Below, piece after piece: positions 7,487 to 52,737 of a stretch of DNA of 64,000 nucleotides (positions are counted from its first letter, which is position 1; each line of letters starts with the position of its first letter). Source of the DNA: Thermoplasmatota archaeon (lineage in GTDB: Archaea; Thermoplasmatota; E2; JACPAO01; JAHFTW01). Where the stretch lies: positions 8,681-72,680 of the forward strand of contig DATLBS010000016.1 in assembly GCA_035526765.1 (NCBI GenBank), read 5' to 3'. The position numbers and the translations under genes are program-made. The notes beneath the pieces are model-generated. The model worked only from the letters and a program-made list of their open reading frames with translations, made no database searches and was not told the DNA's origin.

Positions 7487-8725
7487 CTAGTTGGCGTCCA
7501 TGGCGCCGCTGCGCGCCATGTCGATCCAGCGCTGCGCCACCGCGGGGGTGACGTCGGTGCCCTGGATGCGGACCTTGCGGCCACGCTCGGCGTCCTTGAC
7601 ACGGCGGGAGACCTCTTCGGCGGTCTCGGCGGCCAGCTGCTTGACGCTCAGGATGCCGGCGGCGACCAGGACCTCGGCGCTCTGGGGGCCGATGCCCTTG
7701 ACGCGGATCAGTTCGGCCATGGCCTGCCACTGCTTCACGAGCTCGGGGGTGGCGCCGATGAGGTTGCCGACCTGGTTGGCGTCGATGGCCAGGAGCTGCG
7801 GGATCGTGATGACGCCGTGCGCGTTGAGGCGGGAGGCGTACGCGGGCCCGATGCCCTCGATGGAGAGGATGTGCTGCTTCTCCTCGCCGGCCACGAACTC
7901 GACCGGCTTCTTGGGGCGGCTGGACTGCACGAGGTTGATGTTCTGGTCCTCGAGCTCGCGCTGCTTGACCAGCAGGAGCGTCTCGCGCTTCTTCAGGGAG
8001 GCCAGCTCGGAGTCGAGGGTCTGGCGCAGGGCGGCCTGCTCCATGTCGCGGCGCTCGATGCCTTCCATGGTCTCGTCGACGCGGATGTTGAGCTTCTTCT
8101 GCCCGGCTTCGAGGACGACGACCTTCTCCTGCAGCTCCTTGAGCAGGGGGGAGTTGACCTTGTCGGCCGTGCGCAGGGCGGTGATGTCCTTGGCCATCGC
8201 GCCGACGTCCGCGACCAGCTTCTCGATCGTGGTGCGGTAGGCGGGCTCGCGGCTGAGGGCCTCGGCGCGGGCCAGGGCGTCGGCGGCGTTCTTGAGGGCC
8301 TGGTTGGAGGCGCGCATGGCGCCGTCGTACATCTGGTCGCGGGCGTTGAACTCCCGCTTCATGGACTCCTTCAGGTCGGCAAGGTCGCGGCGGAGGGCGT
8401 CGCGGAACTCGCGGGAGGCCTCCTCCTCGCCGCGGCGCATGTCGGTCATGCGCTCCTGCTCGGAGGCGAAGAGGTCGCGGACCTGCCGCTCGACGTCGAA
8501 GATGACGCCGATGCGGAACAGGAACAGGACGAGGACGACGGTCACGACGAGGGTGGAGAGCAGCAGGGCACGGCTGAGGGCGCCGATCTCGAAGACGCCG
8601 AGGCCGGGCACGTTGCCGAGGCCCAGGATGAGCGCCGTGACGACGCCGAAGCCGAGGATGATCGCGAGAGCCCGGAAGAACTGGACATTGCGCTTGGCAA
8701 AGTCCCCTGCATCGTTGCCGTCCAT
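7487..8725 (-). CDS. membrane protein with a coiled coil and C-terminal tandem helix-hairpin-helix repeats (DUF4332-like)
   Basis: N-terminal TM segments and a long charged coiled coil. The C-terminus reads EGIGPAYASRLNAHGVITIPQLL ... KQWQAMAELIRVKGIGPQSAEVLVAAGI. A paralog lies at 36613..37719. Confidence 0.65.
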   Translation of the reverse strand: MDGNDAGDFAKRNVQFFRALAIILGFGVVTALILGLGNVPGLGVFEIGALSRALLLSTLVVTVVLVLFLFRIGVIFDVERQVRDLFASEQERMTDMRRGEEEASREFRDALRRDLADLKESMKREFNARDQMYDGAMRASNQALKNAADALARAEALSREPAYRTTIEKLVADVGAMAKDITALRTADKVNSPLLKELQEKVVVLEAGQKKLNIRVDETMEGIERRDMEQAALRQTLDSELASLKKRETLLLVKQRELEDQNINLVQSSRPKKPVEFVAGEEKQHILSIEGIGPAYASRLNAHGVITIPQLLAIDANQVGNLIGATPELVKQWQAMAELIRVKGIGPQSAEVLVAAGILSVKQLAAETAEEVSRRVKDAERGRKVRIQGTDVTPAVAQRWIDMARSGAMDAN

Positions 8726-13358: not shown

Positions 13359-13979
13359 ATGGCCCTGCGTGCCCTGGCCCTGGTTGCCCTCTCTGCCCTC
13401 CTGCTTGCCCCGGTCGTTTCGGCCCACCAGGCCGCGTACTCCGTGGACAACAAGTACCGCTTCTCCGTCGGGCACCTGAACGAGCCCATCACGACCTACG
13501 TCAAGACCGGGCTGGACCTGAGCCTCAGCCTCAACGACGCCGCCCGCACCGCGGTCCCCCAGCTCAACCCCGGCAACCTGACCGCCACGCTGACCGCCCC
13601 TGACGGCAGCACCCTCAGCCTCCCCCTGCAGAACCAGTTCGGCACCGTGAACCACTTCACCTTCACGGAGCCGTACGTCCTCACCCAGGGCGGCGTCTAC
13701 CGCCTCAAGGTCACTGGCAACGTGTTCGGCTCCGCCGTCGCCTTCGAGAACGTCGCGGTGGGCAGCACGACCCCAGTCCCCGCCATGTCCAACGTGACCT
13801 TCCCCGCCTCCAAGGTCGCCAGCAACCTCGAACTGCAGGACGAGGTCGCCGCCCTGAAGGCCCGCATCGCCGCCCTTGAGTCCGCCCCCAAGGCGAAGGG
13901 CGCCCCGAGCCTCGATGCCATGCCCGCCCTCGTGCTGCTGCTGGCCGCCGTGGCCGTCGCCACCCGCCGTCGCGCCTAG
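13359..13979 (+). CDS. secreted protein with a signal peptide and a C-terminal TM+RRR anchor (PGF-CTERM-like variant)
   Basis: Signal peptide MALRALALVALSALLLAPVVSAHQ. C-terminus ...APKAKGAPSLDAMPALVLLLAAVAVATRRRA. Confidence 0.65.
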   Translation: MALRALALVALSALLLAPVVSAHQAAYSVDNKYRFSVGHLNEPITTYVKTGLDLSLSLNDAARTAVPQLNPGNLTATLTAPDGSTLSLPLQNQFGTVNHFTFTEPYVLTQGGVYRLKVTGNVFGSAVAFENVAVGSTTPVPAMSNVTFPASKVASNLELQDEVAALKARIAALESAPKAKGAPSLDAMPALVLLLAAVAVATRRRA

Positions 13980-14100
13980 CCGCACCCCGAAGCGCTGGCC
14001 GCCCGCACCTGCGCCCGGTACTTGCGCGCGCGCCGCCCCATGAGCTGCCTGCGTGGCGTCCCCCCGCAAGGCCTATCGGCCGAAGCCGGCTGCGCGCCGC

Positions 14101-15630
14101 ATGGGCCGCGCGACCCTTTCCCTCTCGATCCTCCTGCTGCTGGCGCTGGCCGGGTGCTTCGGCGCCGGCACGACGCCTACGACCTCCGGGACCGGGGCCC
14201 CGGGCGCCCAGGCGGGGTACCGCCTGGACTGCGGGCTCAGCAACTGGAACGAGACCTGCCTCGTGCGCGCAAGCCCCAACGACTCGCCCAGCAAGTCCGA
14301 GATCGACGTCGCCGTGAACCCCGCGGACCCCCGCAACGTCTTCGTCGCCAGCAAGGACCTCGACCGCAAGGCCTCCACCTGCGTGTGGGCCGTGGGCCAG
14401 TACACCAAGGACGGGGGACGCACCTGGAACACGACCTACCTCGGCGGTCTCGCGGCGGAGCGCGGGCCAGCGAACCCCCTCTACGGTTGGCACTGCATCA
14501 CGGACCCCATCCTGCAGTACGAATCCGATGGCACGCTGCACTACTCCCTGCAGGCGTACGAGTACAACCCCGCGAACCTGCCGTACTTCCAGGACCCGAC
14601 GGGGCTTGCGTCGCTGCCGCCGACGATGGGGTACATGTTCCACGCCATCAGCCACGACGGCGGGGCCACCTTCCCGACGATGTTCATCCAGCACGTGGGC
14701 GATGCCGGCTTCGTCTACCACGATTACATGCGCATGGGCCGAAACCCCCGCACCGACACCGTGTTCACGATCTGGAACCAGCTCAGCCCCGGCGCCGGCT
14801 CCGTGCCCGTCGTGGTGGCCGTGAAGCATGGCCAGACGGTCGCCCAGCCCCCCTACTACTTCCCCAACCTCTCCAATGCCCAGGACGCCGAGGGGCAGGG
14901 CATCAGCCTGGGGGAGTCCGCGGTCGTGGGCGCAAGCGACGGCACCGTGTACGCTTGGCTGTCCGGCTTCAACTCGGGGGGCCGCGCCGTCCTCTCCCTC
15001 TCCAACGACGACGGGGCCACCTTCACGCAGCCGCGCCAGGTGTGGAGCTTCACGCCCATGGACGACCTCAATGGCACGGAGTTCCGCACCGGCACGAGCG
15101 TGGAGCTCGCCGTCGACACCTCGGGCGGGCCCCGGGATGGCTGCCTGCACGCCGTGTGGGGCGGCAAGGAGGCCGGCACCGTGGGACCCAGCGACATCTA
15201 CGCGCGCTCCAGCTGCGACAAGGGCGCCACGTGGAGCGAACCCGTCCTCGTGAACGCCCTCCACCGCCAGGACGGGCAGTTCATGCCGCGCGTCTCGGTG
15301 GACGGCCATGGCGCCGTGCATGCCGTCTACATGACGCGGGCGTACGACGAGGCCCACCACCACCTGTGGATCGACGCGGAGCACGCGTCCTCCACGGACG
15401 GCGGGAAGACCTGGGCGCAGCGGCGGCTCACGGGGGTCAGCTTCGACGGCGACCTGGGCGTGCACCAGGACGGTTTCCCCTTCATCGGCGACTACATCGG
15501 CATCTCGAGCGTGGGGGACCACACGTGGATGGGCTTCCCGCACACGATGACGGGCCGGGCGGAGATCGCGGTGGCGCACGTGGTGCACGACGACGACGGC
15601 TCCGGCATCGACCACGGCGCCCACGCATGA
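14101..15630 (+). CDS. lipoprotein with BNR/Asp-box repeats (sialidase/glycosidase-like beta-propeller)
   Basis: Lipobox LLLLALAGCFG. Repeated S-x-D-x-G-x-T-W/F motifs (TKDGGRTW, SHDGGATF, SNDDGATF, SCDKGATW, STDGGKTW). Confidence 0.7.
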   Translation: MGRATLSLSILLLLALAGCFGAGTTPTTSGTGAPGAQAGYRLDCGLSNWNETCLVRASPNDSPSKSEIDVAVNPADPRNVFVASKDLDRKASTCVWAVGQYTKDGGRTWNTTYLGGLAAERGPANPLYGWHCITDPILQYESDGTLHYSLQAYEYNPANLPYFQDPTGLASLPPTMGYMFHAISHDGGATFPTMFIQHVGDAGFVYHDYMRMGRNPRTDTVFTIWNQLSPGAGSVPVVVAVKHGQTVAQPPYYFPNLSNAQDAEGQGISLGESAVVGASDGTVYAWLSGFNSGGRAVLSLSNDDGATFTQPRQVWSFTPMDDLNGTEFRTGTSVELAVDTSGGPRDGCLHAVWGGKEAGTVGPSDIYARSSCDKGATWSEPVLVNALHRQDGQFMPRVSVDGHGAVHAVYMTRAYDEAHHHLWIDAEHASSTDGGKTWAQRRLTGVSFDGDLGVHQDGFPFIGDYIGISSVGDHTWMGFPHTMTGRAEIAVAHVVHDDDGSGIDHGAHA

Positions 15631-16523
15631 CCCCTCGACCCTCCTCCCCCAAGCGCCCCGCGAAGCCTGGCCGGACGGCTGGGGCACCGGCCAAGGCCGC
15701 CGGAGGCAAGGCCGGCAAGGCCGCCCAGGAATCCGTCAAGCGCACGGCCAAGGCGACCGCCAGGCCAGGCGGTGGCGCCAAGGCCGCGAGGGCGCCCCGC
15801 GCCCGCAAGGAGGGGCTGGACGAGGCGGTCATCGCGAAGCTGCTGCCGTACCTGCGCGCCCTTCGGGGCTACACGCGCCTCAAGGCGGACGGCCTCGAGA
15901 ACGTCCCGCGCGGTCCTGCCATCCTGGCCGCCAACCACACGGGCTGGCTGGGTCTCGACTACGCCCTGACCGCCCTCGTGCTGCATGACGAGGCAAAGCG
16001 CACGCCGCGCGGGATGGTGCACTCCGCCTGGTTCGGCAACCCCGTGACGGCCCGCTTCGCGCGCCAAGTGGGGCTCAGCAGGGTCTCCAAGGAATCCATG
16101 GCGCAGGACCTGGCGGACGGGCACCTCGTCATGGTGTTCCCCGAGGGCGAGAAGGGGGCGTTCCGCATCGCCAGCGACTACGAGGTGCTGGAGTTCGCGC
16201 GCGGCTTCGTGCGCGTCGCGATGGCGACCCAGTTGCCGGTCGTCCCGGTGGCCGTGCTGGGCGGGGAGGAGTCGAACCCCGTGGACCGCACCATCAAGGG
16301 TTACGAGGAGATGCTGAAGCTGCAGTTGCCCGTGCCTCGCAACATCCTGCCCAAGCCGGTGAAGTGGCGCATCCGGTTCCTGCCCCCCATCGCCTTCACG
16401 GATTACACGGCCGCCGACGCCGACGACGCGGACCGGGTGCACGCCATCGCGGAGGACGTGCGCACCCGCATCCAGCGCGAGCTGCGCAGGCTGCAGAAGG
16501 AACGCGGGCACCCGTACATCTGA
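15627..16523 (+). CDS. PlsC-family 1-acyl-sn-glycerol-3-phosphate acyltransferase-like protein with a Lys/Ala-rich N-terminal tail
   Basis: ATGA overlap with the upstream gene. NHTGWLGLD (NHxxxxD) and FPEGEKG (FPEG) acyltransferase motifs. N-terminus reads PAKPGRTAGAPAKAAGGKAGKAAQESVKRTAKATARPGGGAKAARAPRARK. Confidence 0.75.
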   Translation: MTPRPSSPKRPAKPGRTAGAPAKAAGGKAGKAAQESVKRTAKATARPGGGAKAARAPRARKEGLDEAVIAKLLPYLRALRGYTRLKADGLENVPRGPAILAANHTGWLGLDYALTALVLHDEAKRTPRGMVHSAWFGNPVTARFARQVGLSRVSKESMAQDLADGHLVMVFPEGEKGAFRIASDYEVLEFARGFVRVAMATQLPVVPVAVLGGEESNPVDRTIKGYEEMLKLQLPVPRNILPKPVKWRIRFLPPIAFTDYTAADADDADRVHAIAEDVRTRIQRELRRLQKERGHPYI

Positions 16524-16529
16524 CGCAGG

Positions 16530-16600
16530 CCACGAACGCTCCGCGCCCGATTCTGGACCAACGACAGTCCAACACGTCCTTGGACGACGGGGGCGTCGAC
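16530..16600 (-). repeat. intergenic repeat family, copy A
   Basis: The reverse complement reads CTGGTCGACGCCCCCGTCGTCCAAGGACGTGTTGGACTGTCGTTGGTCCAGAATCGGGCGCGGAGCGTTCG. It matches copies at about 32395, 40570 and 53655. Confidence 0.6.
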
Positions 16601-16786
16601 CAGAACCATGCCATTTGGTGTGTGGAGCGCACGGCCCCGCAAGGTGTTGACAGGTTGCGGCGGCGCGGCTTCGCCGCGCCCCCATGCCATCGCCAGCTGG
16701 AACAACGCGCCGCCGGCCACACACACCCATGGACGGGGACTCCTCGATTTTCGGGCGACCGATGGCTCGCAGGCGGCGACGGTGCC

Positions 16787-17695
16787 TTACTTGTGGCCCC
16801 TGAGTGCCGTGGCGACCTGGCGATGGATGGTGGGGCTCAGCAGGAACCCCCAGTGGTGCATCCACGGCACGCGGACGTTGCGGGCCCCCGGGTGGCGAAG
16901 GATGGAGTTCTCCGCCGGGATGATGACGCCGTCCACGGGGCTCCAGAAATTGGTGGCCTGCACGCCCTCCGGGACGTCCTCGCCCAGCTCCCGCAGGAAC
17001 TCCGCGCCGGGCCGCACCTGGGCGGCGATGCGCAGCACGGGCAGGACGTACGAGAAGTAGGTGCCCTGGTGCGGCGAGCCGAGGAACACGATGTGGCCCA
17101 CCCGCTGCGCGCCGCCGAGGAACTTGAGGTAGTAGCGCGCGACGATGCCCCCCGCGCTGTGGCACACGAGGTCCACCTTGCCGGGGGCGGGGGAGACGGC
17201 GTCGACCATGGCGGAGAGGTGCTGGGCCGCGATGCGGATGTCCCCCAGCAGGGAGTAGGGCAGGCTGACCTCGGCCACGGAGAAGCCCTCGTGCTCGAGG
17301 CGTCGCCGGAAGAGGTTCCAGTAGAGGTGCCGCTGGCCCAGGATGCCATGCACCAGCAGCACGGGCCGTCCGGTGCCCTGCAGGCCCGAGCCCTTGGCCC
17401 GGGCACGCACCTGCCGCTGCTTGCCGCGCTGGACCGCCTTTGCGACCCTGGCCGTGGCCTTCGCCGCCTTGGCCGTGCCCCGTGCCGTCGCCTTCGCCGC
17501 CTTGGCGCTGCCCCGGGCCGTGGCCTTGGCGGCCTTCTTGGCGGTCCGGGCTTCGCCCACGACCCCATCATGGAGGCCTCCTGTCCATGAAGGGCCCGGT
17601 CCGTTCCGCGGGCAGGCTAATAGGGGAGCTTCCCTCGCGTTGCCGCCGATGGCCGACGCCGCCAAGCCCGCGATCCTCGCCGAGACCCGCTTCAC
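16787..17695 (-). CDS. alpha/beta-hydrolase lipase (class 2, LipA/PGAP1-like) with an N-terminal AKATAR-type basic repeat tail
   Basis: Core RPVLLVHGILGQ...VDLVCHSAGGIVARYYLK closely resembles the Bacillus LipA nucleophile elbow (VDIVAHSMGG..YYIK). N-terminus reads TAKKAAKATARGSAKAAKATARGTAKAAKATARVAKAVQRGKQRQ. The start is uncertain and may overlap the divergent 17649 gene. Confidence 0.75.
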   Translation of the reverse strand: MKRVSARIAGLAASAIGGNAREAPLLACPRNGPGPSWTGGLHDGVVGEARTAKKAAKATARGSAKAAKATARGTAKAAKATARVAKAVQRGKQRQVRARAKGSGLQGTGRPVLLVHGILGQRHLYWNLFRRRLEHEGFSVAEVSLPYSLLGDIRIAAQHLSAMVDAVSPAPGKVDLVCHSAGGIVARYYLKFLGGAQRVGHIVFLGSPHQGTYFSYVLPVLRIAAQVRPGAEFLRELGEDVPEGVQATNFWSPVDGVIIPAENSILRHPGARNVRVPWMHHWGFLLSPTIHRQVATALRGHK

Positions 17696-18086
17696 GGTCC
17701 GCGAGGGGCTGGCCTACCGCGCCATGCGAACGGGCGCCATCTGGATGAACAAGCTGTTCTTCGGCGCCCTCATCCTCCTCGCCATCTGGCTCCTGTACGG
17801 CTACACGGTGGGCACGCAGTCCTGCGTCGGGGGGCTCCCGGCCGCCCCCACGAACGGCACCGTGGCGGACCACGGCACCACCCAGAAGTGCAGCATCCTC
17901 CTCACCGAGACCTCCGTCTACCTCGGCTCCATGGCGCTCCTGACGTTCGCGCTCTCGCTGGCCTTCGGCATCCTGGGGCTCGTCGTGGGCAAGCAGGTGC
18001 TGCGCATGGCCCCTGCCGACTCTGAACCCGGCGCCGGGAACGGTGGCGCGGGTGCAGGCGACCTCCCGCCGCCCCCCTCGCCCTAG
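17649..18086 (+). CDS. small membrane protein (2 TM), hypothetical
   Basis: Internal ATG MADAAKPAIL. Hydrophobic helices LFFGALILLAIWLLYGY and LGSMALLTFALSLAFGILGLVVG. Confidence 0.5.
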   Translation: MADAAKPAILAETRFTVREGLAYRAMRTGAIWMNKLFFGALILLAIWLLYGYTVGTQSCVGGLPAAPTNGTVADHGTTQKCSILLTETSVYLGSMALLTFALSLAFGILGLVVGKQVLRMAPADSEPGAGNGGAGAGDLPPPPSP

Positions 18087-23286: not shown

Positions 23287-23531
23287 GTGCGAAATCAAGA
23301 CCAGACCCCAGCCCTCGATGACCGGCCTTAGCCGTGCATGGATGGCGCTCGCCAGGGTCGTCGAGAGGGGCACGCGCGGTCGACTTGCGGCCCCGCTTGG
23401 ATCTCGCTGGGCAAGCGCCGAGGGTCGTCGAGCGCGCAGCAGCGCGGTCGACGCCTGAGCGAAGCGAGGGAGACCCTCGGTGCTTGGTGGCGTTCGCGCG
23501 CGGCTGCGCCGCGCGCACCGAACGCTGCAAG

Positions 23532-23617
23532 CGCCGAGGGTGAGATTTGAACTCACGCGGGAGTTTCCCCCCACAAGCTTTCCAGGCTTGCGCCTTACCG
23601 GTCTAGACTACCTCGGC
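23532..23617 (-). tRNA. tRNA-Ser (anticodon GGA), with a long variable arm
   Basis: Minus-strand RNA GCCGAGG-UA-GUC..GGC-..CAAGC-CUGGAAA-GCUUG-[variable arm GGGGG/CUCCC]-GUGAG-UUCAAAU-CUCAC-CCUCGGC-G. Acceptor, anticodon and T arms pair well. Ends are +/-2 nt. Confidence 0.8.
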
Positions 23618-23694: not shown

Positions 23695-24372
23695 ATGGCG
23701 TGGCTTTGGCAGGTGATGCGGCCCTGGGCGATCCCCCTCGTGCGCGTGGCCTTCCGCATCCGCGTCGAGGGCCGCAAGCACATCCCGAAGAAGGGAGCCG
23801 CCATCCTGGCCTCCAACCACCTCTCGGCCCTGGACCACGTGGTCCTCCCGGCCGTGACGCGGCGGACCATCATCAACATTAGCAAGGCCGAGCACTTCGA
23901 CAAGCCCCTCAAGGCGTGGTTCTTCCGCCACTGGGGCGTCATCCGTCTCCTGCGCGGCAGCGGCGACCAGGCGGCCCTCGATGCGGCCCGCAAGGCCCTG
24001 CGCGCCGGCAACCTGTTCGCCATCTACCCCGAGGGGACGCGGAGCCTCGACGGCAAGCTGCACAAGGGCCACACCGGTGTGGCGCGTCTCGCCCTGGAGC
24101 TGCAGGTGCCCGTCATCCCCGTCGCCATGGTGGGCACCTTCGAGGCCAAGCCGAAGGGGGGCAAGACGAGGTACTTCACGAAGACGGCGGCCATCGTGGG
24201 GGAGCCCCTGGACTTCTCGCGGCATTGGGGCAAGCACAACGACAAGGCCGTGTGCCGCGAGGTCACGGACGAGGTCATGCGCGCCATCCAGCGCCTGTCG
24301 GGGCAGGAGTACGTGGACGAGTACCAGCACAACCCCGCCGTCCCCGGCCACGCCAGGCCCAAGGCGACCTGA
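23695..24372 (+). CDS. second PlsC-family acyltransferase-like protein
   Basis: Internal ATG MAWLWQ. NHLSALD (NHxxxxD) and YPEGTRS motifs. Paralog of 15627..16523. Confidence 0.7.
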   Translation: MAWLWQVMRPWAIPLVRVAFRIRVEGRKHIPKKGAAILASNHLSALDHVVLPAVTRRTIINISKAEHFDKPLKAWFFRHWGVIRLLRGSGDQAALDAARKALRAGNLFAIYPEGTRSLDGKLHKGHTGVARLALELQVPVIPVAMVGTFEAKPKGGKTRYFTKTAAIVGEPLDFSRHWGKHNDKAVCREVTDEVMRAIQRLSGQEYVDEYQHNPAVPGHARPKAT

Positions 24373-24719
24373 TGGGGGTCACGTTCTGGGGCCGCAAGGG
24401 GTCGCAGGAGACCCTCGACGCCATCGCCTTCCTGAAGAAGGAGCGCTACGGGGCCGACCGCGTGCTGGACCTCGACCAGACACCTCCGACGCTTGCGGAG
24501 ATGGTGCTGCTGGCCAAGGGACTGGGGGACCTAGCCGATGCGATCCATCCGCGCCACGCCGACGCAGCTCCCCCCTCCGACGGCGACCCGCTGGGCGCCT
24601 GGCTGGCCGCCGATCCGCGCAGGATGCGTGACCCGTTGCTGCTGACGCCGAAAGGGGCTCAGGCGGGATTCCGTGAGCAGAGATGGCGTGCCTTCCTTGA
24701 CATCGGGAAAGGACGATGA
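24372..24719 (+). CDS. ArsC/Spx/YffB-family thioredoxin-fold protein (arsenate-reductase-like, with Ser in place of Cys)
   Basis: MGVTFWGRKGSQETLDAIAFLKK resembles the N-terminus of the ArsC family (TxYxxxxCxxSR). Overlaps the upstream stop. Confidence 0.5.
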   Translation: MGVTFWGRKGSQETLDAIAFLKKERYGADRVLDLDQTPPTLAEMVLLAKGLGDLADAIHPRHADAAPPSDGDPLGAWLAADPRRMRDPLLLTPKGAQAGFREQRWRAFLDIGKGR

Positions 24720-25834: not shown

Positions 25835-26236
25835 ATGGCAACGACCCGCATGGGCCGCCGCGGCGGCCGCAAGACCGTCCGATCGGCTGGCAAGCGCTCC
25901 GTCCGCAAGGTGGCGCGCTCGACCCGCAAGGCGACCCGCAAGGTCGCGCGCACCGCGAAGAAGGCGACACGCAAGGTCGCCCGCAAGACGACGAAGGGCC
26001 ACCGGAAGGTCGCCCGCAAGACGACGAAGGCCAACCGCAAGGTGGCGCGCAAGGGCGCCCGCCGCACCCTGTCGCGCGGCTCCCGGCCATCACGCCGCAT
26101 GAACGAGCCCCGCCGCGAGATGCTCCAGTTCCAGGAGGTCCCCATGGACTCCTCCTACGGATCCGGCTCTTACACGCCGCGCGCGGAGCCTAAGAAGGAG
26201 CACAAGGGCTTCCTTGGCTTCCTCGGCTTCCGCTAG
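25835..26236 (+). CDS. highly basic repeat protein (RKVAR repeats of about 11 aa), histone-H1/AlgP-like low-complexity protein
   Basis: Repeats KATRKVARTAK / KATRKVARKTT / KGHRKVARKTT / KANRKVARKGA. Non-repeat tail ...EPKKEHKGFLGFLGFR. GAGG sits 7 nt upstream of the ATG and a T-rich terminator follows at 26240-26270. The opposite-strand ORF is its mirror artifact. Confidence 0.55.
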   Translation: MATTRMGRRGGRKTVRSAGKRSVRKVARSTRKATRKVARTAKKATRKVARKTTKGHRKVARKTTKANRKVARKGARRTLSRGSRPSRRMNEPRREMLQFQEVPMDSSYGSGSYTPRAEPKKEHKGFLGFLGFR

Positions 26237-35027: not shown

Positions 35028-36404
35028 CTACGCGAGCCAGACCAGGCCCGCGGCCAGGAGGCAGCCGGCGAAGAAGTGCGCCGCGATGGTGCTGGCGCAG
35101 CCCTTGATGAGGGCGCGGTCGCCGTAGTGCCGGACCGCCATGTAGCCAGCGAAGCCCGCGATGGGAAGGGCCAGCAGCGCCAGGAGGGCCCCGCGGGGCA
35201 GCAGGTGGGTCACCGTGACCTCGACGACGACCGCGGCGAAGGCGGCCGCCACGATGGCGACGTAGCCCCAGCGCGCGTTCTTCGTGCCCAGGGTGGCGAC
35301 GAGGTGGTTCTTGCCGGTGGCCCGGTCGCTGGGGGCGTCGGGGAACTCGTTGATCCACAGGATGGCGAGGGTCAGCAGCCCGATGGGGATGCCCAGCAGG
35401 AAGGAGTCCCAGCCGACGTGGCCCGAGATGCCGTAGACGGCGCCCGCGGTCATGAGGGGCCCGAAGTTGAGGAAGGAGCTGAGCTCGCCCAGGCCGCGGC
35501 GGGCGGCCAGTCGGACCGGCGGCGCCGTGTAGAAGAACCCCATGAGGGCGCCGGCGGCACCGAAGGCGAGGACCAGGGGGCGGCCGAGGACGACGAGGAC
35601 GCCGGCGATGGCCAGCGCGGCGACGATGGCGGCGGTGCCCACCAGGAAGGTGCCCTTCGGGGTGATGAGCCCGAGCTCGATGGCGCGCGAGCCTCCGGTG
35701 AACGGCAGGAAGTAGTCGTTGTTGGCCTCGTCCGTGCCCGACTTGACGTCGAAGTAGTCGTTGAAGACGTTGGCCGCGAGGTGCAGCGCGATGCCGCCCA
35801 GCATGACGAGGGTGAACAGCAGCCAGGGGAACGGGTCCGGGGTGTAGCCCTTCCATGCGGCGAAGGCGGCCGCGACCAGGATGGGCACGAGGGTGGCGGT
35901 CAGGAAGGGCAGGCGCCCGATGACGACGCCCTTGAAGATGCGGGTGCCCAGGGTGGTCTTGGGCATGATGGTGGCCGGGTCGACGCCGGGCAGTTCGGTG
36001 GTGTAGCCGCAGTAGCCCGTCTGGACGCCCGAGGCCTTGCCGCCCTTGTAGGTGGGCGTGATGCGGGCGTGCGCGGCGAACCGCGTGCCGTCCTTGCGGA
36101 CGAAGACGGTGTCGCCCTCGAAGGCGCCCTTCGTGCGGGCCTCCTTGAGCCAGCGCGGGACGTGGCCCAGGACGACCTCGCCAGGGCTGAACAGGCTCAC
36201 GCGCTTCTTCCCAACGACCTCCTCGGCCGTGTACTGGAAGATCTGGTGGGCGCCGTCGTTGAAGGTCTCGATGCGGCCCTCCATGTCGCAGGTGATGACG
36301 GAGACGGGGGCCTTGGCGGCCGGCTTGGCGGTCTCGATGGAGACCTGGGGGGCGGGCGCCTTGCGGGCTGGCCTTGCGGCACGGGTGGGGGTGGCCTTCG
36401 GCAT
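35028..36404 (-). CDS. N-terminal PAS domain fused to a UbiA-superfamily prenyltransferase (MenA-like, 1,4-dihydroxy-2-naphthoate polyprenyltransferase-type motif)
   Basis: Internal ATG MPKATPT. PAS segment VITCDMEGRIETFNDGAHQIFQYTAEEVVGKKRVSLFSP...FVRKDGTRFAAHARITP. Then 8-9 TM helices with NVFNDYFDVKSGTDEANN (NDxxDxxxxxD, as in MenA NDYGDAVKGSD). Confidence 0.7.
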   Translation of the reverse strand: MPKATPTRAARPARKAPAPQVSIETAKPAAKAPVSVITCDMEGRIETFNDGAHQIFQYTAEEVVGKKRVSLFSPGEVVLGHVPRWLKEARTKGAFEGDTVFVRKDGTRFAAHARITPTYKGGKASGVQTGYCGYTTELPGVDPATIMPKTTLGTRIFKGVVIGRLPFLTATLVPILVAAAFAAWKGYTPDPFPWLLFTLVMLGGIALHLAANVFNDYFDVKSGTDEANNDYFLPFTGGSRAIELGLITPKGTFLVGTAAIVAALAIAGVLVVLGRPLVLAFGAAGALMGFFYTAPPVRLAARRGLGELSSFLNFGPLMTAGAVYGISGHVGWDSFLLGIPIGLLTLAILWINEFPDAPSDRATGKNHLVATLGTKNARWGYVAIVAAAFAAVVVEVTVTHLLPRGALLALLALPIAGFAGYMAVRHYGDRALIKGCASTIAAHFFAGCLLAAGLVWLA

Positions 36405-36612
36405 GCTCTCAGGTCCCTTGGACAGGAGGGGACACATAAGCGCCACCGTTGGAAACAACTTGCCGGGAGTTGTAAGGGACTCGCGACGTCCGCCCACCCA
36501 CGGCCCCGAATGGAGAACGGAACCCGAAACCTGCAGGCAAGGGGACAGAGCTCACTCTGGTATCTGTGTCCTCGGGGGCTGGGCAGGAGTGTTGGGGAGG
36601 CGGTTGGATGGG

Positions 36613-37719
36613 CTACTGCGCCGGTTCCTTGAGGCGGACGCGCTTCATGCCCTCGGCCGCCTTCTTCCAGCCCTCGACGCGGGCCTCGGTGATCTTGATG
36701 CCGACCACCGTGGTCTCGAGCGAGTCGAGGTAGTCGTTGACCTGCTGCGTGACGGTGGAGGCGGCGCGGCGCTTGAGGGCCGCGATGCCGTCGATGCCGC
36801 TGCGGGCCAGGGCCTCCGCGTACTGGGGGCCGATCCCCTTCACCTTGACCAGCTCGGCCATGGCCTGCCACTGCTGGACGGTCTTGATGGGCACGCCGAC
36901 CTTGCTGGCCAGCTTGGCCGCGTCCTCGAAACACAGGCGCGCTGTCGTGTGGATGCCGGCCGCGCGCAGCTTGTCGCCGTAGATGGCGCCAATCCCCTCG
37001 ATGTCCTCGACAGGGTGGACGTCGCCCGGGTAGTCGTAGTACGCCCGCTCCGTGGGCACCGCGACGCGGGCAGGCCGGGCCACGCGTTCCTGCAGCTGCT
37101 GCACGAACTGGCGACCGTCGGCGGCCTTCCCCGTGGCGGGCACGCTGCCGTCCCGCTTCCGGGAAGACGGGAAAAGCTTGGAGCGGTAGGGTTCGGGCAC
37201 GTCGTCCGGGCCCAGCTGGGGGCGCGCCGGCACCGCCTGCTGGCCCTGCAGGGGCAGCTGCGCCGCGCCGTCGGGGCCGGCCAGGAGGGTGCGCATCTTG
37301 AGGGTCGTGCCGCCCGCGTCGACGCGGATGTAGTCGTTCGTGTAGACGGCCCGCTCCACGGGCCGGGGGTACGTGTAGGCCACCGTGTCCTGGCGCTCGG
37401 TGGGCTGCCAGGAACGGTACGCGGTGGTCACCGTGGGGATGTCGTACACGACGACGTCGGGGCCCATGCGGGGCGTGGGCTTGGCAAGGTGGGCGTGCTG
37501 GGTGGCGCGCATCTCCTCGGTGACCTCGAGGGCCTGGAACTCGATGGCCTGGGCATCCGCGGCGGGATCCGTCGCCCATTGCGCGGGCTGCGCCCCGGCC
37601 TGCATGGCGCCGGCGCGACGGCGGCGGCCCGACTGGGCAAGGACCAGGACCAGCAGGAACACGACGAGGACGCCCAGGGCGACCAAGGAAGCGACAAGGG
37701 TGGGGTCCAGGGCGGCCAT
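36613..37719 (-). CDS. paralogous membrane protein with tandem helix-hairpin-helix repeats (DUF4332-like)
   Basis: Internal ATG MAALDPTLVASLVALGVLVVFLLVLVLA (TM). C-terminus reads IEGIGAIYGDKLRAAGIHTTARLC...QQWQAMAELVKVKGIGPQYAEALARSGI, near-identical in motif to 7487..8725. Confidence 0.65.
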   Translation of the reverse strand: MAALDPTLVASLVALGVLVVFLLVLVLAQSGRRRRAGAMQAGAQPAQWATDPAADAQAIEFQALEVTEEMRATQHAHLAKPTPRMGPDVVVYDIPTVTTAYRSWQPTERQDTVAYTYPRPVERAVYTNDYIRVDAGGTTLKMRTLLAGPDGAAQLPLQGQQAVPARPQLGPDDVPEPYRSKLFPSSRKRDGSVPATGKAADGRQFVQQLQERVARPARVAVPTERAYYDYPGDVHPVEDIEGIGAIYGDKLRAAGIHTTARLCFEDAAKLASKVGVPIKTVQQWQAMAELVKVKGIGPQYAEALARSGIDGIAALKRRAASTVTQQVNDYLDSLETTVVGIKITEARVEGWKKAAEGMKRVRLKEPAQ

Positions 37720-51804: not shown

Positions 51805-52737
51805 TTAGGTGAAACGGCGAAGGGGGCCGGTGGGGCCGAAGAGGTAGCGGAAGGGGGAGCCCATGACGTGCTGGAAGCGTTTGAACGCGGTCGCGAACTC
51901 GCCGCGGAACTCGTCGGCCATCGTGGCGCCGAGGAGGCCGACGAGGAGGCCCCCCGGGATGTCGGTGATCCAGTGGATGCCGAGGTAGAGGATGCTGAAG
52001 GCGAACAGGGCCGTGTTGGCGATGAGGAACCAGAGGAAGCCGCGGTGCTCCCAGTCCCGCAGGGTGTAGCCGCGCCGCTTCATGGCCCACCAGGCCACGC
52101 ACACGAGCCCGAAGGGGATCGCGATGTGCAGGCTGGGGAAGGCGTTGTCGAGGGGGTCGTGGGCGAGGAAGAAGCTGTGCCAGCCTGGGCCGGCATTGTA
52201 GAGGAGGCTGCGGACGCCGGGCACGTAGCGGCTGGTCACCTGGACGTTGAAGAAGATGTAGAACGGCACCGCCAGGAGGTAGATGATGGAGTACGTGAGG
52301 GCCGCGAGGTCGGCCAGCTCCTTGTCGTCGCGGTACGCCCACAGCATGACCGCGAAGTAGGTCAGGAAGACGTAGACCCAAAGGTAGTGGACGTTCAGGA
52401 CGGCCGTGAGCGCGGGGGTCTCCAGCGCGTGCTGGATGTGGTAGACGGCGGGGCCCTCCATCTTCCAGATGAGCCAGGTCTTGTCCCCGAAGACGCCGCG
52501 CACCCGGTCGTTGAGGCTGTCCACCCAGCCCTTCTCGACGACGATGACGGCGAACAGCAGGAAGTTCCACGTGTAGTCCGTGGCCAGGCGCACCATGTTC
52601 GACCAGATGCTGCCCGCCCAGCGCCGCCGCTCGAACCACCAGATGGCCAGCGGCGTCGTGGCCAGCACCGACCAGATGGTCACCGTCCCGAGCGAGACCG
52701 CCACGGCCGCCGAGGCTTCCCTCCTGTAGATAAACAA
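51805..52737 (-). CDS. PAP2-superfamily membrane phosphatase/phosphotransferase (Aur1/sphingomyelin-synthase-like)
   Basis: 6 TM helices. FPSLHIAIPF (PSGH-like) and LGIHWITDIPGG (the H...D motif). Confidence 0.6.
   Translation of the reverse strand: MFIYRREASAAVAVSLGTVTIWSVLATTPLAIWWFERRRWAGSIWSNMVRLATDYTWNFLLFAVIVVEKGWVDSLNDRVRGVFGDKTWLIWKMEGPAVYHIQHALETPALTAVLNVHYLWVYVFLTYFAVMLWAYRDDKELADLAALTYSIIYLLAVPFYIFFNVQVTSRYVPGVRSLLYNAGPGWHSFFLAHDPLDNAFPSLHIAIPFGLVCVAWWAMKRRGYTLRDWEHRGFLWFLIANTALFAFSILYLGIHWITDIPGGLLVGLLGATMADEFRGEFATAFKRFQHVMGSPFRYLFGPTGPLRRFT

Follow-up and report, generated by a model that had tools for sequence, protein, structure and literature searches.

The DNA analyzed here is a 64-kb stretch of contig DATLBS010000016.1 (positions 8,681 to 72,680 of the forward strand; assembly GCA_035526765.1) from a Thermoplasmatota archaeon, referred to below in its full length as the window. 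At its center of interest lie two genes of bacterial-type ester lipid families. PlsC1 (15627..16523, + strand) encodes a PF01553 acyltransferase of 298 amino acids (aa), assigned with Pfam, AlphaFold2 (AF2), and Foldseek. Lip (16787..17560, − strand) encodes an alpha/beta serine hydrolase of 257 aa when read from a GTG codon at 17560, with the longest open reading frame (ORF) extending to 17695 (302 aa). The genes are convergent and separated by 263 bp, in agreement with a preliminary description of this DNA, and no RNA or terminator features were found in the spacer when they were looked for. A second acyltransferase gene, PlsC2, and the neighboring genes TM17 and sec269 are described below; all five names were coined in this analysis.

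PlsC1, a PF01553 acyltransferase with an H-x6-D motif

PlsC1 matched PF01553 above the gathering score (69 bits, E = 4.5e-19; cut-off, 23; Pfam). A disordered basic tail rich in Lys, Ala, Arg, and Pro makes up the first ~60 aa, and the protein contains the motifs NHTGWLGLD (H104...D111), FPEGEKGAF, ARGF, and PVVPVAVLGGEESNP. Motif I is thus of the form H-x6-D, with the Asp seven residues past the His, and NHTGWLG.D was invariant in an alignment of 31 homologs, as were FPEGE.GAF, ARGF, and the individual residues H104 and D111. The canonical Asp position of Thermotoga maritima PlsC (TmPlsC) aligned to a Gly of PlsC1 in a hidden Markov model (HMM) alignment, and profile-profile alignment of the PlsC1 family with the PlsC2 family required a six-residue gap at motif I. 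PEG is kept in motif III (FPEGEKG) and Thr-Arg is absent. The preliminary description had assigned both NHxxxxD and PEG motifs to two PlsC homologs; PF01553 membership and PEG were found in both proteins, whereas NHxxxxD occurred only in PlsC2 (NHLSALD).

Both window proteins resemble bacterial PlsC and other lysophospholipid acyltransferases (LPLAT; AGPAT), such as TmPlsC (5KYM), in PF01553 membership, (F/Y)PEG, and a hydrophobic PVxPV strand. PlsC1 differs from PlsC in its H-x6-D spacing, in having FPEGEKGAF instead of PEGTRS, and in a secondary weak match to DAGAT (5e-4; Pfam). Against TIGR00530 it scored 30.7 bits, below the curated threshold for lysophosphatidate acyltransferases (LPAATs; cut-off, 102.95), and the only sequence match of the PlsC1 family profile in the Protein Data Bank (PDB) was TmPlsC, at 1.8e-5. 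As judged from its sequence (the H-x6-D motif, the low TIGR00530 score, and the weak PDB match), PlsC1 is not a canonical PlsC. The AF2 model had a mean predicted local distance difference test (pLDDT) score of 78.9, with the core above 90, and its best Foldseek match was again TmPlsC (E = 2.3e-7; template modeling [TM] scores, 0.48/0.58), followed by PatA and squash glycerol-3-phosphate acyltransferase (5F2Z, 2.6e-5; 1IUQ, 7.4e-5). The alignments of both PlsC1 and PlsC2 to 5KYM began at about residue 63 of 5KYM, leaving unaligned the N-terminal region of TmPlsC, which forms its two-helix membrane anchor.

At E thresholds of 1e-3, 1e-10, and 1e-30, an exhaustive profile search with the PlsC1 type recovered 6667, 1541, and 223 clusters, respectively. 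PlsC1 thus belongs to a large and distinct PF01553 subfamily (NH[ST]G-x4-D, FPEGEKG) that is widespread also in apparent high-GC bacteria; its non-archaeal members shared NH[AS]G-x4-D and FPEGxKG. Many non-archaeal H-x6-D members, such as P0402 (600 aa), are longer (330 to 690 aa) and carry N-terminal extensions of 100 to 400 aa without known domains. A fusion of hydrolase and acyltransferase among these distant relatives was considered and rejected, as no hydrolase domain was found in the N-terminal extensions of the 10 long homologs that were scanned. One of the scanned proteins was fused to an NAD-dependent epimerase/dehydratase domain; in mycobacteria, Rv0502 has an epimerase gene as its neighbor.

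Lip, a LipA/MAS1-type serine hydrolase

The probable start of Lip is at 17560, given the conserved, divergently oriented gene whose start lies near 17640; this start gives the 257-aa protein of the NCBI version (P0121, 100% identical). Lip begins with a basic helix rich in Ala and Lys that is followed by a core of ~195 aa. In the numbering of the 302-aa ORF, the oxyanion HG lies at positions 116 and 117, and the catalytic triad comprises Ser180 (within CHSAGG), Asp255, and His281. The HG and the triad were invariant in an alignment of 31 homologs and aligned to the catalytic regions of LipA. A Lip family profile matched the PDB entries 6NKC (3e-22), MAS1 (5H6B; 2.6e-19), and Bacillus subtilis LipA (1I6W; 4e-18), so that the earlier claim of a lipase whose VDLVCHSAGG elbow is close to that of LipA was borne out.

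The AF2 model of Lip (mean pLDDT, 81.5), in which the N terminus is likewise a basic helix, matched MAS1 best in Foldseek (5H6G; 3.5e-14; TM scores, 0.56/0.67; 31% identity), followed by MAJ1, CALB, LipA, and PPT2. Among Pfam families, PGAP1 (32.6 bits) and Palm_thioest (29.7 bits) were matched; the match to Lipase_2 was partial and marginal (21.1 bits; cut-off, 20.3; profile positions 2 to 99 of 219), and that to DUF7379 fell just under its cut-off (31.9 bits; cut-off, 33). Like the family I.4 lipase LipA (1I6W), MAS1 (5H6B), and MAJ1 (7V3K), Lip has a lid-less core of ~190 aa with an x-H-S-x-G-G elbow, a Ser-Asp-His triad, and an oxyanion HG. It differs from these enzymes in that the secretion signal is replaced by the basic helical N-terminal extension and in that the elbow reads CHSAGG rather than AHSMGG. 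Sequence and model together indicate that Lip is a minimal lid-less LipA/MAS1-type serine hydrolase, putatively cytoplasmic.

No signal peptide, lipobox, or transmembrane segment was detected in Lip, whose highest 19-residue Kyte-Doolittle value was 0.97 and lay in the core. Hydropathy analysis likewise revealed no transmembrane segment or signal peptide in PlsC1 or PlsC2, and all three proteins carry a net positive charge. Given these properties and their disordered or helical basic tails, PlsC1, PlsC2, and Lip should be cytoplasmic or peripheral to the membrane.

Basic low-complexity tails rich in Ala, Lys, and Arg and composed of short repeats occur on several window proteins (15627-15800, 17411-17560, and 25835-26236). 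The repeats include KAxK in PlsC1, AKAAKATARG in Lip, and RKVARKTTK in a 133-aa ORF (25835-26236). These tails differ in length between homologs and look like a trait of the lineage that is not specific to lipid genes.

Conservation of the PlsC1-Lip pair across relatives

Thirteen relatives were informative, having a PlsC1 homolog at ≥50% identity on a contig that extends far enough downstream. In 10 of these 13, a Lip homolog (50 to 86% identity) was located downstream of PlsC1 on the opposite strand and within 2.5 kb. With loci of relatives designated by L numbers, the pair was directly convergent in L003, L009, L010, L011, L012, L014, L015, and L086, and the gene ends overlapped in L003, L011, and L086. 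A single unassigned gene of 483 to 488 aa stood between PlsC1 and Lip, on the Lip strand (−), in L087 (5131-6582) and L088 (5052-6518); no similarity of this gene to the BNR protein of the window was detectable. As a lower bound across the wider set, at least 23 of the 61 PlsC1 homologs on contigs of ≥5 kb were found on a contig of the same size as that of a listed Lip homolog. No Lip-like gene was found beside the bacterial-type relatives of PlsC1 (L005 to L008 and L016 to L081).

The outer flanks of the pair varied, with at least six different contexts. These included a Trp operon across the pair from DNA polymerase D and Fpg (L009), an Arg operon together with HisI and aro genes (L010), Lon, BNR, and His/aro genes (L011), and SRP19 and S8e (L086), with Adk-Cmk-Cbf5 as the flank in the window. 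No mention of a PlsC1-Lip pairing was found in the literature searched.

TM17 (17640..18086, + strand; hydropathy, tblastn) encodes a small membrane protein of ~148 aa whose strongest hydrophobic segment is MALLTFALSLAFGILGLVV and for which no Pfam or NCBIfam match was found. Homologs of TM17 (50 to 72% identity, tblastn) adjoined Lip in L010, L011, L012, L015, L086, and L087 and lay within ~3 kb of Lip in L009, L014, and L088. TM17 is divergent from Lip in the window and in most of the relatives' loci, and it could be a third member of the PlsC1-Lip block.

On the other side of the pair, the product of sec269 (13359..13979, + strand; hydropathy, tblastn) is an exported protein that starts with a signal-like segment, contains a short stretch resembling a coiled coil, and closes with a hydrophobic anchor and the residues RRRA; no meaningful Pfam match was found. 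The anchor with its RRRA end resembles a sorting-signal tail. Homologs of sec269 directly preceded PlsC1, on its strand, in L001 (5387-5863), L086, L087, and L088; in L011, the homolog lay close by but inverted (tblastn). The gene directly upstream of PlsC1 in the window (14053..15630, + strand) encodes a BNR/sialidase-like beta-propeller protein of 525 aa; the signal peptide (LLLLALAGC) is lipobox-like, and the matches to BNR and BNR_2 were weak, both below cut-offs. Its stop codon overlaps the ATG of PlsC1 (ATGA). In the window, this BNR-like gene is inserted between sec269 and PlsC1; homologs with 57 to 59% identity were present near PlsC1 in L011 and L086, in other positions and orientations.

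Inheritance within Thermoplasmatota

The 120 best matches per protein were retrieved from among 5.8 billion proteins. For PlsC1, Lip, and PlsC2, these matches shared ~49 to 100% identity with the window proteins, and the source names given among them were Thermoplasmatota or Thermoplasmata, save a few labeled “bacterium” or “Halobacteriales.” In L086, a locus labeled “bacterium,” the SRP19 and S8e genes are of archaeal type. Each of the three proteins has more than 100 Thermoplasmatota homologs with 50 to 90% identity, and the NCBI proteins identical to Lip and PlsC2 are both encoded on a 121-kb contig labeled “Candidatus Thermoplasmatota archaeon.” The closest named bacterial relatives of PlsC1, from Solirubrobacteraceae, were 33 to 39% identical. 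In L001, the divergence of PlsC1 (62% identity) was like that of the housekeeping gene RpiA (68%).

GC content was 66 to 75% across the whole window, and ~57 genes had a GC content at the third codon position (GC3) above 0.9; GC3 was 0.96 in PlsC1, Lip, and PlsC2, the same as in their neighbors. Archaeal housekeeping genes lie within 1 to 2 kb on both sides of PlsC1 and Lip. Pfam matches in the window identified an Rpo11-like subunit, Csl4, TruD, RpiA, archaeal adenylate kinase (Adk), EMC3/DUF106, Cmk, and Cbf5, and the window also encodes endonuclease IV, eIF2-beta, seryl-tRNA synthetase, S15, Kae1, a Bud32-like kinase, the CCA-adding enzyme, and TATA-binding protein (TBP), so that the core machinery is archaeal, as had been described previously.

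PlsC1, Lip, and PlsC2 are vertically inherited within one Thermoplasmatota clade and were not recently acquired. The distance of the bacterial relatives and the large size of the PlsC1 subfamily imply that any acquisition from bacteria was old. The host clade is high in GC, and its members derive largely from soil and sediment metagenomes.

PlsC2 and its surroundings

PlsC2 (23695..24372, + strand; Pfam) encodes a PF01553 acyltransferase of 225 aa (102 bits, E = 2.5e-29; cut-off, 23) that is identical over its full length to NCBI protein P0241. The ORF is open from 23632, and the start was placed at 23695 because a tRNA-Ser (GGA) gene occupies 23531..23617 on the − strand (Rfam RF00005, 58.4 bits; ARAGORN). 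The protein contains NHLSALD (H42-x4-D47) and YPEGTRSLDG; NHLSALD and YPEGTRSxDG were invariant in 24 homologs. Scores against TIGR00530 (78.3 bits; cut-off, 102.95) and PRK15018 (18.8 bits; cut-off, 501) were below the respective cut-offs, and TmPlsC (5KYM) was the sole PDB sequence match (3.8e-15).

PlsC2 is similar to the mycobacterial acyltransferase PlsM (Rv2182c) in length (225 versus 247 aa), in motif I (H42-x4-D47 versus H41-x4-D46), in having no predicted transmembrane segment, and in having TmPlsC as the closest structure (PMC10593935). PlsM acylates both glycerol-3-phosphate (G3P) and lysophosphatidate (LPA) (PMC10593935). The C-terminal sequences of the two proteins may also resemble each other. 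PlsC2 is a better candidate than PlsC1 for a lysophosphatidate-type or glycerol-phosphate acyltransferase.

A 115-aa ORF without a family match (24372..24719, + strand; tblastn, NCBIfam) overlaps the stop codon of PlsC2 by 1 nucleotide; no NCBIfam match was found for it. Homologs with 52 to 54% identity lie directly downstream of PlsC2 in L082 and L083 (tblastn). Judged by eye, the product resembles ArsC/Spx-like thioredoxin-fold proteins. Synteny around PlsC2 was conserved in L082 and L083; in L083, the 115-aa ORF, endonuclease IV, and eIF2-beta followed in order, with Adk and DUF106 nearby. A gene of the fatty acid desaturase family (PF00487) is located at L082 positions 1-753 (GCA_034667725.1, JAXDQS010000003.1), ~6 kb upstream of the PlsC2 ortholog. 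The relative that holds L082 also has a PlsC1-Lip pair (L011), and the desaturase is a hint that the clade may modify acyl groups or lipids in additional ways.

PAP2 and other genes of the window

A PAP2-superfamily integral membrane phosphatase or phosphotransferase of 310 aa is encoded at 51805..52737 (− strand), with matches to PF01569 (38.7 bits; cut-off, 27.2) and PAP2_3 (PF14378; 31.5 bits) and with PSLH and HWITD motifs. Its best NCBIfam match, undecaprenyl-diphosphate phosphatase, was weak (28 bits; cut-off, 229), and nothing in the matches pointed to a phosphatidate phosphatase. The gene had been counted previously among the acyl lipid enzymes of this DNA. It is a real gene, and as evidence for acyl lipids it was set aside: it lies 35 kb away from the acyltransferase system, its matches are generic, and its neighbors are TBP, the CCA-adding enzyme, and one unassigned ORF. 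PF14378 includes lipid phosphotransferases besides phosphatases, and the name lipid phosphatase may be too narrow for this protein.

The only prenyltransferase of the window is a UbiA-family protein (35028-36497, − strand) that carries a PAS domain at its N terminus. The best matches were of the MenA type (1,4-dihydroxy-2-naphthoate polyprenyltransferase), all below cut-off, and a role as the archaeal lipid synthase digeranylgeranylglyceryl phosphate synthase was rejected on that basis, leaving no evidence for ether lipid synthesis from this gene. The fusion of a sensor domain to a membrane prenyltransferase is unusual. No gene for glycerol-1-phosphate dehydrogenase or geranylgeranylglyceryl phosphate synthase was found in the window.

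Two paralogs (7487-8725 and 36613-37719, both on the − strand) share C-terminal DUF4332 and helix-hairpin-helix domains, with N-terminal halves that were not assigned. ARAGORN also reported a 98-nucleotide tRNA-Leu (CAG) at 16256-16353 (− strand), within PlsC1; this is a probable false positive in GC-rich coding DNA, with no Rfam match at that position.

Proposed function of PlsC1 and Lip

The reading that we tentatively prefer, at somewhat less than an even chance, is that of a two-enzyme module for acyl-ester turnover, made up of PlsC1 and Lip, that one Thermoplasmatota clade has inherited vertically and kept together in position, with PlsC2 acting separately. PlsC1, soluble or peripherally membrane bound, would use an activated donor, in an archaeon most likely acyl coenzyme A (acyl-CoA), to attach a fatty acyl group to a hydroxyl group of a glycerolipid-like acceptor, and Lip would remove acyl groups of the kind that PlsC1 adds. 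The resulting cycle of acylation and deacylation could serve remodeling of the Lands type or the build-up and mobilization of a neutral lipid of the acylglycerol type. For such a cycle, we infer an acyl donor, an acceptor, and a pool of substrates common to PlsC1 and Lip. PlsC2 would be a separate, canonical H-x4-D enzyme of the soluble PlsM/PlsC type within a conserved housekeeping neighborhood.

Remodeling of the Lands type, by a phospholipase or lipase together with an LPLAT, is similar in pairing an ester hydrolase with an acyltransferase of the PF01553 clan; here, the two are encoded by separate, convergent genes. In plants, hydrolase and acyltransferase are fused in the PES/ELT phytyl ester synthases. 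By analogy with other archaea, the presence of acyl donors is plausible: Sulfolobus acidocaldarius has been shown to synthesize fatty acids de novo, Haloferax volcanii has been shown to contain them, and homologs of the pathway are present in Thermoplasmatota (bioRxiv 10.1101/2024.07.05.601840). Haloarchaea make wax esters (PMC11948995).

Several observations weigh against a turnover module. Lip was not near PlsC1 in L001, L002, or L004 or in the distant archaeal loci L084 and L085 (~45% identity), and no Lip remnants were detected in these five loci at E ≤1. Convergent genes such as PlsC1 and Lip are not cotranscribed. Two genes without an obvious role in lipids, TM17 and sec269, belong to the conserved block as well, so that the adjacency could reflect inherited synteny instead of functional coupling. 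Because PlsC1 does not have the canonical H-x4-D motif, activity and acceptor are not transferable to it from PlsC, and Lip, which matches thioesterase and deacylase families (Palm_thioest, PGAP1, and PPT2), may not be a glycerolipid lipase. The window contains no plsX, plsY, plsB, fab, or beta-oxidation gene and no acyl-CoA synthetase (fadD) gene. Finally, Coleman et al. considered archaeal PlsC homologs unlikely to take part in membrane phospholipid synthesis (PMC6431249).

Alternative explanations

Inherited synteny alone, with functions that are unrelated, is possible though rather unlikely. PlsC1 would then act, for example, on a non-glycerolipid acceptor, and Lip would be a general esterase, thioesterase, or protein deacylase. 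The convergent gene order, the presence in the block of TM17 and sec269 without a lipid signature, the five loci in which the pair is absent, and the matches of Lip to Palm_thioest, PGAP1, and PPT2 besides lipases all favor this explanation, as does the use of PF01553 domains in other pathways, such as those of ornithine lipids and bacterial ether lipids (PMC11948995). However, the pair persists although both of its outer flanks have been rearranged in at least six ways, and ester formation and ester hydrolysis are complementary chemistries.

A diacyl phospholipid or mixed membrane, in which PlsC1, PlsC2, or both are LPAATs that make phosphatidic acid, PAP2 dephosphorylates it, and Lip remodels the product, is distinctly less probable. 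PlsC2 holds all of the canonical LPLAT motifs and has TmPlsC as its only sequence match in the PDB, and its PlsM-like traits, together with the acylation of both G3P and LPA by PlsM, mean that PlsB or PlsY would not be strictly needed. A diacyl or mixed membrane has already been proposed for Marine Group II (PMC6962369). Yet neither acyltransferase reached the TIGR00530 cut-off, PlsC1 has no H-x4-D motif, plsX, plsY, plsB, and fab genes are absent from the window, the PAP2 gene is unlinked and generic, and a membrane synthesis role for archaeal PlsC is unlikely according to Coleman et al. (PMC6431249).

It is a doubtful but conceivable extension that the PlsC1-Lip block, perhaps with TM17, is a dedicated system in which fatty acids are reversibly attached by ester bonds to an isoprenoid ether lipid of the archaeon or to a lipid-linked component of the envelope. 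Candidate acceptors would be a monoalkyl glycerol phosphate at its free sn-position, a head group hydroxyl, or the anchor of the exported proteins encoded upstream. If so, genuine hybrid ether/ester lipids would exist in terrestrial Thermoplasmatota, and the H-x6-D subfamily would represent a class of acyltransferases specific for a new kind of acceptor. AliA and AliB, the archaeal lipoprotein lipidation enzymes, are membrane proteins that attach thioether-linked archaeol; they are unrelated to PlsC1 and Lip, and a link to that process was rejected.

Scavenging, with Lip breaking down ester lipids taken from bacteria or eukaryotes and the acyltransferases reusing the fatty acids set free, was among the possibilities raised in the preliminary description and is now quite improbable. 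The enzymes of solved structure that come closest to Lip, namely Bacillus LipA, Streptomyces MAS1, and Janibacter MAJ1, are secreted lipases, and lipid degradation has been suggested for Marine Group II/III relatives (PMC6962369). Lip itself, with its basic N-terminal helix, its maximum 19-residue hydropathy of only 0.97, and neither signal peptide, lipobox, nor transmembrane segment, is unlikely to act outside the cell, and the conserved block holds no transporter or acyl-CoA ligase gene.

A contig chimeric with bacterial DNA, which had been named as a possible objection to the archaeal origin of these genes, or a very recent bacterial transfer is effectively refuted: most members of PF01553 and of the LipA-type lipases are bacterial or eukaryotic and a few homologs are labeled “bacterium” in NCBI, but composition is uniform (GC, with GC3 of 0.96), the PlsC1 start overlaps the upstream stop codon, the neighbors are archaeal, the same genes recur in the same neighborhoods in many independent Thermoplasmatota metagenome-assembled genomes (MAGs), and the nearest named bacterial relatives of PlsC1 are only 33 to 39% identical.

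Relation to known archaeal PlsC homologs and significance

PlsC-like genes in archaea are already known, and the phenomenon is not new. Homologs in MAGs of Thermoplasmatota (Marine Group II/III), DPANN, and Asgard archaea have been regarded as horizontal acquisitions of uncertain function (PMC6431249; PMC6962369), and archaeal PlsC homologs, together with those of PlsY, have been discussed as a possible route to chimeric membranes (PMC6962369; PMC13400652). The genes described here are like those published (Villanueva et al. 2017; Coleman et al. 2019) in being PF01553 genes of uncultured archaea including Thermoplasmatota, where they have been interpreted as ancient acquisitions from bacteria. 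They differ in belonging to a high-GC, apparently terrestrial lineage with two paralogous families, of which the H-x6-D one is coupled positionally to a hydrolase. The split between H-x6-D and H-x4-D paralogs, the cytoplasmic LipA-like hydrolase, and the conserved PlsC1-Lip(-TM17) block go beyond the literature searched.

The proposal that acyl-ester metabolism was acquired or retained in this archaeon thus survives in part. The enzyme families are credible and the genes, each with >100 homologs, have been retained vertically; PlsC1 does not stand as a canonical PlsC. Fatty-acyl ester lipids in archaea bear on the “lipid divide” and on the origin of eukaryotic membranes, a question that this locus does not settle. 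If the substrates are ordinary acylglycerols or acyl-CoA, the finding would amount to routine metabolism. The occurrence of PlsC-like genes is extended to another Thermoplasmatota lineage, in which they are long resident and not contaminating, and two acyltransferase types that annotation had merged under one name, H-x4-D and H-x6-D, are now separated. PlsC1 and Lip, which are small and predicted to be soluble, offer a tractable and testable handle on the proposed acyl-ester turnover in this clade.

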